Virus record (IMG/VR): IMGVR_UViG_2713896779_000023 | Source: a virus | Taxonomy: Duplodnaviria; Heunggongvirae; Uroviricota; Caudoviricetes | DNA: 9,351 nt | Strand: one strand, 5' to 3' | In this document: positions 1,668 to 8,355 of the stretch, in pieces | Layout of the letters: every line of letters begins with the position of its first letter | How positions within the stretch are numbered: position 1 is the stretch's first letter | The notes under the pieces: model-generated | What the model was told of the DNA's origin: nothing | The model's database searches: none | The model's input: the letters and a program-made list of their open reading frames with translations, nothing else | Made by a program: the position numbers and the translations under genes

Positions 1668-2306
1668 TTAAATATCTTGTTGAATTTTAAAGCATACTCC
1701 CAATATGCAAGATAGATCATCCAGCATAATTGAAGGGTAGCGAGGATTCGTGGGGACTAAAAGAATATCCGGCCCTTCTATCTCCAGTTTGCGAATGACA
1801 GGCGTTGTGGTCCCTTTGGGTAAGGCAAGGACAATATTTCCTGGTTGTACGATTCGATCGGGATCAACAAAAACTGTTGAACCATTTGGGATGGAAACTC
1901 CACCACCAGATGTCGACATACTGTCACTCTCTAGAACAACAGCAAAGGTATTGGCCGGGATTTCTCCGACAAGCTGCACACAAGAGGTTATTGAGGAATT
2001 TTTCATATAATCACTCCAGCTTGCTGCCTGCTGAAGTGATAGTAGCGGAACCGTTTTTATCGGCGGTAAAGATAGATCAAGCGAATCACCTGTATTTAAC
2101 TCTCCTCCATTAAGAAGCCAATTTTCGTTTACTTTCAATATCTTTGCCAGTGAACTTATGTAACGCGAGGACGGCGCTCCTCCACCGTTCATCCATTGAC
2201 TTACGGAGCCTTTTGATGCGCCAGTGGCATTGACAAGGTCTTTGCCTTTCAAGTTTAGCGCATGCATACGTTGGGTTATGCGTTCAGATATTGTTTGCTT
2301 GTTCAT
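1668..2306 (-). CDS. cI-like prophage repressor (N-terminal XRE-type HTH, C-terminal S24 LexA-like autopeptidase)
   Basis: 212-aa ORF. The N-terminus has an HTH pattern (GKDLVNATGASKGSVSQWMNG). The C-terminus has the Ser...Lys signature of S24 peptidases (ESDSMS ... PVIRKL). It is transcribed divergently from a cro-like gene. No SD precedes the ATG at 2306, consistent with a leaderless PRM-type transcript. Confidence 0.85.
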   Translation of the reverse strand: MNKQTISERITQRMHALNLKGKDLVNATGASKGSVSQWMNGGGAPSSRYISSLAKILKVNENWLLNGGELNTGDSLDLSLPPIKTVPLLSLQQAASWSDYMKNSSITSCVQLVGEIPANTFAVVLESDSMSTSGGGVSIPNGSTVFVDPDRIVQPGNIVLALPKGTTTPVIRKLEIEGPDILLVPTNPRYPSIMLDDLSCILGVCFKIQQDI

Positions 2307-2397
2307 GTTTTGATTTTAAAACACAGATGGTTTTGTTTCTTGACTTTCTTTGGTTTTGATTATTAAACTTTTGGCGTTCAGTTTTATGGAGCGACTC
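2307..2397. promoter_or_regulatory. divergent promoter/operator region between the cI-like and cro-like genes
   Basis: Three direct repeats (TGTTTTG at 2306-2312, GGTTTTG at 2329-2335 and 2352-2358) spaced about 23 bp apart. Inverted repeat TGTTTT-N6-AAAACA at 2306-2323. Rightward -35 TTGACT at 2340-2345 with AT-rich -10-like hexamers (TATTAA/TAAACT) at 2361-2369. Leftward -10-like TAAAAT (minus strand, 2318-2313) ends 6 nt before the cI ATG. Confidence 0.5.
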
Positions 2398-2640
2398 ATG
2401 AAAAAATCAGAAGTATTAGGCTATTTTGGCGGAGTTGTTAAAACAGCCGCCGCTCTAGGAACGTCAAAAACCACAGTCAGCATGTGGGGGGAAGACGTTC
2501 CGTGGAAATGGGCGTTGCTAATTCAGGCAGTCACTGCCGGGGCGCTCAAATATGAGTTACACATACCGACGGTTGTCATTCCCGATTCTGATCATAATCC
2601 GCCTTCTAACCAAGGGGGGATTCATGAAAATCAAGCATGA
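2398..2640 (+). CDS. Cro/YdaS-like small HTH regulator (80 aa from ATG 2398; ORF-track start 2350 is probably too far upstream)
   Basis: GGAG at 2388-2391 lies 6 nt before ATG 2398. HTH-like segment VVKTAAALGTSKTTVSMW. Position and orientation match cro. Overlaps the next gene by 17 nt. Confidence 0.7.
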   Translation: MKKSEVLGYFGGVVKTAAALGTSKTTVSMWGEDVPWKWALLIQAVTAGALKYELHIPTVVIPDSDHNPPSNQGGIHENQA

Positions 2641-3049
2641 ACACATCCGCATGGCGATGAATGCCTGGGCGCGTCCTGATGGCGAAAAAGTTCCGGCAGC
2701 TGGAATAACCCAGGCTTATTTTGAGTTGGGTATGACGTTTCCTGAACTGTACGACGACAGCCATCCGGAAGCCCTGGCTCGCAATACCCAGAAAATTTTC
2801 CGCTGGATAGAGAAAGACACCCCTGATGCAGTTGAAAAAATGCAGGCTCTGTTACCGGCGATCGAAAAGGCAATGCCGCCTCTGCTGGTGGCCCGTATGC
2901 GCAGTCACAGCTCTGAATATTACCGTGAGATCGTCGAACGGAGGGATCGGCTGGTGAAAGATGTGGATGATTTTGTCGCAGCGGCGATCGCCTGGGGCAC
3001 CCTGACTAACAGTGGGGGGCAGCCTGGTAATGCTGTTGTCGTGCATTGA
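2624..3049 (+). CDS. YdaT-like protein at the cII position (141 aa)
   Basis: AGGGGGG at 2612-2618 precedes ATG 2624. The N-terminus MKIKHEHI matches my recollection of the Rac prophage YdaT family. It follows a YdaS/Cro-like gene. Confidence 0.6.
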   Translation: MKIKHEHIRMAMNAWARPDGEKVPAAGITQAYFELGMTFPELYDDSHPEALARNTQKIFRWIEKDTPDAVEKMQALLPAIEKAMPPLLVARMRSHSSEYYREIVERRDRLVKDVDDFVAAAIAWGTLTNSGGQPGNAVVVH

Positions 3050-3117: not shown

Positions 3118-4185
3118 ATGGCTAATGCCTGGCTCAGATTGTGGCATGACATGCCAAATGACCCCAAGTGGCGAACGATTGCCAGGGTATCAGGACAGCC
3201 AATCGCAACAGTGATGGCAGTGTATATCCATCTTCTGGTGAGTGCGTCACGAAATGTCACGACATGTCACGGCGTGTCACTACGTGGTCACATTGATGTC
3301 ACGACGGAAGATTTAGCAAGTGCGCTTGATGTGACGGAAGACGTAATTGATTCAATTTTGCATGCAATGCAGGGGCGGGTTCTGGATGGTGACCTTATTT
3401 CCGGATGGGAAAAACGTCAGGTGCTGAAAGAGGACAATGGTAACGTTTCGCAAACGGCAAAATCCCCGGCAGAGCGCAAGAGAGCGCAGCGGGAGCGGGA
3501 AAAGCTGCGGAAACATAATGCTGATTGTCACGATGAGTCACGACGTGTCACGCATCTGTCACGACAAGTCACGACAGATAAAGATACAGATAAAGATACA
3601 GATAAAGATACAGATAAAGATACAGATACAGAATTAAACCCCACACATAACGCGCGCGAGAGTATTCCGACCAGTGAGTCGAATGGTGCGCCGTTGCAGA
3701 CAGCCGAACCTGAATACCTGGACGGCCTGAGCGAACCGATCGGGAAATTTCCGATGACTACTGTCTGGCAGCCGTCGCCGGATTTTCGACAACGGGCAGC
3801 AGTGTGGGGTATGGCTCTGCCTGAGCCGGAATTTACACCTGCTGAGCTTGCCGCATTCCGGGATTACTGGATGGCGGAGGGGAAGGTTTTCACGCAGGTT
3901 CAGTGGGAGCAGAAATTTGCCCGCCACGTGCAGCACGTCAGGGCACAGGTAAAACCAGTCAGCAAGGGGGGAAGCCATGCAGCATCAGGTGGCACGGCAT
4001 CACGGGCAGTTCAGGAAATCCGGGCTGCACGCGAACAGTGGGAACGTGACAACGGATTTATCAGCAACGGAAACGGCCTGGAAGCTGTGGGAGCTCATGG
4101 GGGAGGTGTATTCGAACCGCTGGACTCAGAAGAACGGGGCCGCACCTTCGAAGCTCTGGATTGCCCAGATTGGTGCGATGACTGA
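3118..4185 (+). CDS. replication initiator (lambda-O-like role) with internal iterons and a (DKDT)n linker
   Basis: GAGG at 3109-3112 lies 5 nt before ATG 3118. The gene sits immediately upstream of a P-like gene. It contains two clusters of about 10-bp-periodic GTCACGAC repeats and a 12-bp tandem repeat, an architecture like ori-lambda inside O. The N-terminal sequence is not obviously lambda O, so the family is uncertain. Confidence 0.7.
   Translation: MANAWLRLWHDMPNDPKWRTIARVSGQPIATVMAVYIHLLVSASRNVTTCHGVSLRGHIDVTTEDLASALDVTEDVIDSILHAMQGRVLDGDLISGWEKRQVLKEDNGNVSQTAKSPAERKRAQREREKLRKHNADCHDESRRVTHLSRQVTTDKDTDKDTDKDTDKDTDTELNPTHNARESIPTSESNGAPLQTAEPEYLDGLSEPIGKFPMTTVWQPSPDFRQRAAVWGMALPEPEFTPAELAAFRDYWMAEGKVFTQVQWEQKFARHVQHVRAQVKPVSKGGSHAASGGTASRAVQEIRAAREQWERDNGFISNGNGLEAVGAHGGGVFEPLDSEERGRTFEALDCPDWCDD
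3244..3308. repeat. iteron cluster 1: about 6 copies of (T)GTCACGAC-like motif at roughly 10-bp spacing
   Basis: cgtcacga 3245-3252, tgtcacgac 3255-3263, tgtcacgg 3265-3272, tgtcact 3275-3281, ggtcaca 3285-3291, tgtcacgac 3298-3306. Confidence 0.6.
3526..3576. repeat. iteron cluster 2: 5 copies of (T)GTCACGAC at 10-11-bp spacing; candidate replication origin
   Basis: tgtcacga 3527-3534, gtcacgac 3538-3545, tgtcacg 3547-3553, tgtcacgac 3557-3565, gtcacgac 3568-3575; immediately followed by an A-rich tandem repeat. Confidence 0.65.
3577..3630. repeat. perfect 12-bp tandem repeat GATAAAGATACA x4 plus a partial GATACA
   Basis: Read directly from the sequence; encodes DKDTDKDTDKDTDKDTDT inside the initiator gene. 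Confidence 0.9.
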
Positions 4186-7216: not shown

Positions 7217-7314
7217 AAACGGTTTGCGGGAAAAGGATAGTTAAGTAGAATTGCTGCGGGTGCTTGAGGCTATCTGCCTCGGGCATGAACACCAACGGCA
7301 GATAGAGAAAAGCC

Positions 7315-8305: not shown

Positions 8306-8355
8306 NNNNNNNNNNNNNNNNNNNNNNNNNNNNNNNNNNNNNNNNNNNNNNNNNN
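8306..8355. other. run of 50 N (masked or unresolved sequence)
   Basis: Literal n characters; the frame relation across it is undefined. Confidence 1.

Follow-up and report, generated by a model that had tools for sequence, protein, structure and literature searches.

A probable OR region with three 18-bp operator sites for a cI-like repressor in a lambdoid prophage of Escherichia coli O157:H7

Introduction

How does a phage repressor read the DNA between its own gene and a divergent cro-like gene when the most visible feature of that DNA is a row of evenly spaced direct repeats? The repressors of lambda, 434 and P22 bind dyad operators as symmetric dimers; repressors of the P2 C type are small proteins devoid of an S24 domain and bind head-to-tail sites without dyad symmetry. 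The question was raised by positions 2306-2397 of a 9,351-nucleotide viral DNA (Caudoviricetes; IMG/VR record IMGVR_UViG_2713896779_000023), which as a whole is called the window in the following. We analyzed the region, the genes on either side and their relatives in order to define the sites present there, their symmetry and the likely start of the repressor mRNA.

Results

The immunity module and its genes

The region separates two divergent genes. On the minus strand, positions 1668-2306 encode a cI-like repressor of 212 aa consisting of an N-terminal HTH_3 domain (PF01381) and a C-terminal S24 peptidase domain (PF00717, E = 8e-13), and the protein matched the chains of the lambda cI, 434 and P22 c2 repressors. 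On the plus strand, a cro-like gene of 80 aa (2398-2640; P22_Cro, PF14549, E = 1e-15; PDB 1rzs, P22 Cro, E = 3e-8) starts after an intergenic region of 91 bp and shows a Shine-Dalgarno (SD) sequence, GGAG at 2388-2391, 6 nt before its ATG at 2398. The third gene of the switch, at 2624-3049 on the same strand, encodes a YdaT-like protein (PF06254; PDB 8bt1, CP-933P YdaT, E = 2e-79, about 90% identity), which is the functional equivalent of CII, and is followed by an O-like gene with a DnaT domain and by a lambda-P-like gene. The O-like replication gene contains two arrays of the 10-bp unit GTCACGAC(A/G)T (among 3246-3291, 3527-3575 and 3574-3632) and 4.9 copies of the 12-bp unit ACAGATAAAGAT, which encodes a DKDT repeat; these repeats look like origin iterons located within the initiator gene, as in lambda.

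The N-terminal sequence M-x-K-x-T-[IL]-x-[ED]-R-I was kept among the cI relatives, thus fixing the ATG at 2306 as the start of the repressor. In the RefSeq O157:H7 record, only the C-terminal 112 aa of the intact 212-aa reading frame are annotated, as a "LexA family protein", while phage records start the same repressor at Met14 (199 aa), and gene callers seem to be misled at this start by the missing ribosome-binding site. Residues S129 and K173 were invariant in the cI family and were aligned, by reading, with the SM and KL catalytic motifs of lambda cI. Since the S24 domain appears to retain this Ser/Lys dyad, SOS-triggered self-cleavage of the repressor would be plausible; the scissile position, however, which aligns with the Ala-Gly of lambda, is Ala94-Ala95 in the window and, among relatives, A-E, A-V or A-G.

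Positions 1462-2700 were 100% identical to a defective lambdoid prophage of E. coli O157:H7 strain TR01, which adjoins nleG7 and carries a damaged integrase gene and a damaged recE. Of 5426 complete E. coli genomes, 1041, O157:H7 included, contain the immunity module from cI to ydaT over 80% or more of its length, and three induced, unstudied E. coli phages carry a matching immunity region. A tblastn search of 50,697 phage records with the cI DNA-binding domain returned no studied phage with a shared immunity, the matches being three uncharacterised E. coli phages and relatives of 35-49% identity in Acinetobacter and Pseudomonas phages. The literature search found nothing on the repressor family of the window and, as regards transcription-start data for its prophage, only the analogues CP-933P, Rac and PY54; there appears to be no earlier study of this immunity module. 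Parts of the window are masked by runs of N (1412-1461, near 7300 and near 8310). Where the window has 50 N at 1412-1461, the identical O157:H7 record has just 14 bases (tgccgtcatgttct), so that coordinates to the left of 1462 are offset with respect to the real genome.

Three sites between the cI-like and cro-like genes

A sequence-only reading of the locus had reported three evenly spaced repeats between the divergent genes, and GTTTTG was indeed found at 2307, 2330 and 2353, exactly 23 bp apart, as part of the heptamer [T/G]GTTTTG at 2306-2312, 2329-2335 and 2352-2358. Triplets of a 6-mer at equal spacing (15-30 bp) occur at only two places in the 9,351-base window, one of which is this. 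Each repeat opens an 18-bp site. Putative operator A (OR3-like, 2306-2323) is the perfect palindrome TGTTTTGATTTTAAAACA, putative operator B (OR2-like, 2329-2346) reads GGTTTTGTTTCTTGACTT and putative operator C (OR1-like, 2352-2369) reads GGTTTTGATTATTAAACT. The inverted repeat TGTTTT-N6-AAAACA that had been described as overlapping the cI start proved to be site A itself, whose first base complements the A of the ATG (CAT at 2304-2306) and which lies over the putative -10 and start point of PRM.

A promoter scan detected PR on the plus strand as TTGACT-18-TAAACT, with the -35 at 2340-2345 and the -10 at 2364-2369 (TAAACT or TAAAAT in relatives). The right half of A is AAAACA; that of C is TAAACT, in which the half-site TAAAC preserves the core and doubles as the PR -10; that of B is TTGACTT, in which the core is lost to the PR -35, the left half-site being conserved. 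Sites A and C are 88% identical over 16 nt, C having two mismatches to TGTTT-N8-AAACA, and the consensus can be written as TGTTTTG-N5-TAAAC(A/T), a pseudo-palindrome with a GTTT/AAAC core and centres 23 bp apart. The region thus shows the layout of an OR, namely three related sites about two helical turns apart with the PR -35 in B, the PR -10 in C and a -10-like hexamer in A.

The sites were then compared among variants and distant relatives. In variants with an 83-89% identical cI, the intergenic length of 91 bp was kept and A, B and C were essentially invariant, the substitutions being located between A and B (2325-2328) or beyond C on its downstream side. The distant comparison comprised seven lineages, i.e. 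the window and six relatives (Symbiopectobacterium, Regiella, Phlomobacter, Arsenophonus and two metagenomes) with a cI of 43-53% identity and a recognition helix, SKG[SAT]VSQW, common to all. The layout A-5-B-4/5-C was present in all six relatives: the dyad TGTTTW-N6-WAAACA begins at the T of CAT, xGTTTTG...TTGA(CT/TC) follows 5 nt past A, with TTGACT or TTGATC as the PR -35, and xGTTTTG...TAAA(C/A)T comes after a further 4-5 nt. As the seven lineages are related, this recurrence does not count as independent evidence. The genome-contig scan led to one relative only, and a scan of viral contigs with the Symbiopectobacterium cI gave no match.

The retention of the repeats in diverged variants and distant relatives, together with the variation of the short spacers between them, supports the assignment of 2306-2397 as an operator/promoter region made in the sequence-only reading. 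The repeats are very probably repressor-binding elements, and the same sites are probably also bound by the P22_Cro-like protein.

A second pair of sites at a leftward promoter

A second cluster of sites of the same type was found downstream of cI at a leftward promoter, as expected for OL/PL. The promoter scan located the putative PL on the minus strand at 1555-1583 (TTGACC at 1583-1578, 17 nt, TAAACT at 1560-1555). An OL1-like operator (1555-1572; reverse complement TGTTCGTTTTTCTAAACT) covers its -10 with two mismatches to the dyad pattern, while an OL2-like operator (1584-1601), the perfect palindrome TGTTTTTTTATCAAAACA and an exact match to the dyad, abuts its -35. PR and PL were each detected by the scan and each is overlaid by sites in equal register; four of the six matches to the dyad at up to two mismatches in the window lie at the OR and PL regions. 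Among 80 IMG/VR loci, OR and the OL2 dyad were almost invariant, OL2 being altered in a single locus at a base of the central spacer. The relatives, whose OL sites were put in register by eye, also have a TTGACx promoter downstream of cI, with a C-type site over its -10 and another dyad located 0-5 bp ahead of its -35; OL2 is palindromic in most of them, and in several an N_peptide gene comes next after PL. On these grounds we consider 2306-2397 to be, in all probability, the OR of an E. coli O157:H7 lambdoid prophage, with three 18-bp operators for the cI-like repressor.

About 3700 E. coli genomes, that of K-12 with its Rac prophage included, share an 80-nt block (1462-1541) just leftward of the putative PL. 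The core of the block, CGCCTCGGGCTGGCTACTTA, can still be made out in the relatives from Arsenophonus, Regiella and Symbiopectobacterium, in several of which it lies upstream of an N_peptide gene. The block may represent a nutL-like or other leader element. The conserved block 1462-1554 folded as RNA returned z = -0.12, with no sign of structure, and an Rfam scan of the window gave zero matches.

Symmetry of the sites

The sequence-only reading had further proposed that the operators are direct repeats instead of lambda-type palindromes and had taken this as a hint of a different geometry of repressor binding. This part found no support in the analysis: of the five site classes, A, C, OL1 and OL2 have an inverted GTTT core, and the centres of lambda OR3, OR2 and OR1 are themselves 23 and 24 bp apart. 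Averaged over the seven lineages, the inverted half matched the core at 3.7-3.9 of 4 bases in each of A, C, OL1 and OL2 but at 1.6 of 4 in B; dyad symmetry was thus found in the first four and not in B, which has no inverted half-site in any lineage. In our reading each of the three "direct repeats" is the left half of an 18-bp site; the impression of direct repetition comes from B and C, whose promoter-side halves also serve as the PR -35 (TTGACT) and -10 (TAAACT). Since the right halves of C and OL1 are at the same time -10 hexamers, a role in the promoter might by itself account for their conservation, and two lineages have TAAAAT at the -10, by which the C of the core is lost. An unbiased count of 18-bp dyads, performed lineage by lineage, was not significant alone because the DNA is A+T-rich. 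An "everted" dyad, AACA-N10-TGTT at 2319-2336 (right half of A plus left half of B), recurs in four lineages; it was rejected as the true register since the isolated OL2 shows only the TGTTT..AAACA register, and it is most simply taken as a by-product of two adjacent dyad sites.

Two other explanations of the repeats were weighed against dyad operators. Chance occurrence in A+T-rich intergenic DNA, or generic promoter elements bound by no specific protein, would be in keeping with the T-richness of the region and with the loose versions of the motif (two or more mismatches), which are not enriched across the window. The strict versions behave differently: any equally spaced triplet arose in just 23 of 20000 mononucleotide shuffles of 2300-2400, the exact TGTTT-N8-AAACA core has two copies in the window where 0.01 would be expected (none in 300 random sequences), and the register is held down to a cI of 43% identity while the spacers vary, which makes this explanation hardly credible. 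Somewhat more weight, but still little, is due to a repressor that would read the three GTTTTG head-to-tail about two turns apart, in the manner of P2 C, with the dyad at the cI start being incidental. In its favour, all seven lineages strictly keep GTTTTG, in equal orientation, in the left half of both B and C, and B does lack the inverted partner. Site A speaks against it, as the relatives drop GTTTTG there (GTTTAT, GTTCGT, GTTTGT, GTCTAT) yet retain the dyad TGTTTW-N6-WAAACA, the opposite of what direct repeats predict. Moreover, OL2, which is outside any promoter hexamer, is a perfect or near-perfect palindrome, and the protein is related to the lambda, 434 and P22 repressors: dyads in four of five site classes and an HTH_3 plus S24 repressor of 212 aa do not fit the P2 C type. 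Head-to-tail reading is therefore judged very unlikely, and dyad operators are retained as the preferred interpretation.

The start of the cI mRNA

The cI ATG had been described as lacking an SD and preceded by a -10-like hexamer, and both observations were borne out. The 20 nt before the ATG (TGTGTTTTAAAATCAAAAC) contain no SD, and TAAAAT, the reverse complement of 2313-2318, is located 6 nt from the ATG as the -10 of a putative PRM on the minus strand, the cI start reading TAAAAT-CAAAAC-ATG; the putative PRM -35, AAGAAA, is poor. In all seven lineages an SD is absent before cI, and a -10-like hexamer (NAWAAT, in the forms TAAAAT, AATAAT, AAAAAT and GATAAT), always with A as its second and T as its sixth base, is separated from the ATG by exactly 6 nt. 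The cI mRNA is likely to start at the A of the ATG, and thus to be leaderless. The lambda cI mRNA transcribed from PRM has been shown experimentally to be so. The same holds for the paaR2 mRNA of CP-933P, as demonstrated by 5' RACE, N-terminal sequencing and mass spectrometry (PMC8630535), and a leaderless cI mRNA is documented for PY54 (PMC4488713); in both, an operator is situated at the start codon or over it.

Alternatively, the mRNA might start upstream, for example at AATAAT (2364-2359, minus strand) or TTAACA-18-AATACT (2441-2412, minus strand), and carry an SD-less leader, TAAAAT being kept merely as the A+T-rich centre of operator A. Lambda cI is also expressed via a leadered transcript, from PRE; in this case, however, an added PRE-type upstream promoter would be compatible with a leaderless PRM. 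The promoter scan reported the minus-strand site at 2441-2412 and missed the TAAAAT promoter, which went unreported because its -35 is poor. Operator centres usually vary, whereas the critical -10 positions stay 6 nt from the ATG in seven of seven lineages; the identical geometry is found in lambda and CP-933P, whose starts are proven leaderless, and an SD by which a leadered transcript could be translated is absent. On the other side, only one of the three racR promoters of Rac, the strongest, is leaderless, with operator O3 overlapping the ATG (PMC9638921). On balance a leadered mRNA appears rather unlikely, although it is the most serious of the competing explanations considered here, and a leaderless start remains our preferred reading.

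Proposed switch mechanism

A mechanism for the switch can be proposed, as a whole by analogy, in which the observed sequences, spacing, conservation and recurrence at PL are combined with inferred protein binding, order of occupancy, cooperativity and transcription start. Sites C and B would cover the -10 (TAAACT) and -35 (TTGACT) of PR, which would drive cro, ydaT and the replication genes, and a repressor dimer at C, aided cooperatively by a neighbour at the half-degenerate B, would turn PR off. Site A, the best dyad, would lie over the -10 and start of the cI promoter, whose mRNA would most likely be leaderless with the A of the ATG as its 5' end; Cro or excess repressor bound there would turn cI off. 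Occupation of OL1 and OL2 (1555-1572 and 1584-1601) would block PL likewise.

Assuming a start at 2306, A spans +1 to -17, while B and C are centred at -31.5 and -54.5 respectively. As lambda OR2 is centred at -42, activation in the lambda style would not be obviously possible from B. Repressor at B might instead occlude the cI promoter, resulting in a switch without positive autoregulation, and specific contacts would be made there by a single subunit of the dimer. The half-sites come in two strictly conserved forms, GTTTTG in B, C and OL1 and, in most lineages, GTTTA in both halves of A, and these forms might allow cI and Cro to fill the sites in opposite order. That the switch is wired differently from that of lambda in spite of the similar layout is, in our opinion, unlikely.

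Discussion

The locus is an uncharacterised immunity type of a well-known kind, i.e. an ordinary switch with no new mode of DNA binding, and the general picture of lambdoid switches is left unchanged. Once known, its operators and probable promoters may help in predicting prophage cross-immunity and induction in EHEC, and the annotation of a repressor gene with an SD-less start could be corrected.

The spacing of the lambda OR and the geometry of its PRM were checked on J02459, in which OR3, OR2 and OR1 are annotated. As in lambda, divergent genes for an HTH plus S24 repressor and a Cro protein flank three similar dyad sites (23-24 bp apart in lambda, 23 and 23 bp in the window) that extend over both promoters, and a second operator set is present at PL. 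The SD-less lambda cI start, TAGATT-TAACGT-ATG, has the same arrangement of -10, 6 nt and ATG. However, the lambda operators are 17 bp long (TATCACCGC..) and unrelated in sequence to the 18-bp TGTTTT..AAAACA operators of the window, and the window set is shifted by about 10 bp, approximately one helical turn, towards the cI start, with A centred near -8.5 against -19 for OR3 and B near -31.5 against -42 for OR2. Moreover, only two OL sites are evident in the window, Cro is a member of the P22_Cro family and the CII equivalent is YdaT.

The Cro family is shared with P22, and the N-terminal domain of the cI-like protein aligns end to end with the DNA-binding domains of P22 c2 and 434. Similarity is low (E about 1e-4 for the N-terminal domain) and the recognition helix differs. 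The operators of P22 are likewise 18 bp long and are expected to differ in sequence from those of the window.

A further parallel, in the same host, is the PaaR2/YdaS/YdaT switch of CP-933P from E. coli O157:H7 (Jurenas et al. 2021, PMC8630535; Prolic-Kalinsek et al. 2023, PMC9986795). Its region was recovered via a primer match, since the supplementary tables of PMC8630535 give primers and no operator sequences. Both are Rac-like lambdoid modules with YdaT proteins of about 90% identity, identical PR hexamers (TTGACT/TAAACT), short intergenic regions (97 bp in CP-933P, 91 bp in the window) and 18-bp palindromes with a GTTTA-type half-site, some of which lack one half; a PL with matching operators is also shared. 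The paaR2 start, GATAAT-TACCAC-ATG, has the geometry of the window cI and is leaderless by experiment (PMC8630535), and its authors noted a balance of direct and inverted repeats. In contrast to the window repressor, PaaR2 is a protein of 123 aa without an S24 domain, followed by a toxin-antitoxin pair, and YdaS is of the XRE/YdaS type, unlike the window proteins. BLASTP of the window cI against PaaR2 gave no alignment, so that the CP-933P footprint data are not transferable by homology. Four palindromes, about 19 bp apart by our own reading, are described in CP-933P, while the window has three at 23 bp with a half-site other than GTTTAGTAA, and only YdaT is common to both. As the repressors are not detectably homologous and the sites differ in number and spacing, the window represents a different immunity type.

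Sequences resembling YdaT sites are also present in the window. Operators A and C each contain a copy of the YdaT half-site TTGATT (2310-2315 and 2356-2361), the two copies being 46 bp apart and in the same orientation. YdaT binding at OR was considered and rejected, as no full TTGATT-N6-AATCAA is present there and TTGATT is not kept in distant relatives, some of which are without YdaT; its occurrence in A and C is therefore probably coincidental. GGGATTCATGAAAATCAA at 2617-2634 overlaps the ydaT start codon and has two mismatches to the CP-933P YdaT operator TTGATT-N6-AATCAA, an operator that CP-933P carries where ydaS ends, close to a PRE-like promoter. It can be regarded as a candidate YdaT site; at two mismatches the pattern has six matches in the window against 6.0 expected by chance.

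Finally, the racR-ydaS region of Rac carries three inverted-repeat operators, O1-O3, between a divergent repressor gene and ydaS (Wisniewska et al. 2022, PMC9638921). O3 overlaps the repressor ATG, as site A does here, and the strongest racR promoter is leaderless (PMC9638921). The flanking DNA is common to the window as well, i.e. the 80-nt block at 1462-1541 and the start of ydaT. RacR, however, is a different protein with the operator WTAGGC-N3-GCCTAW, and Rac is thus of a different immunity type.
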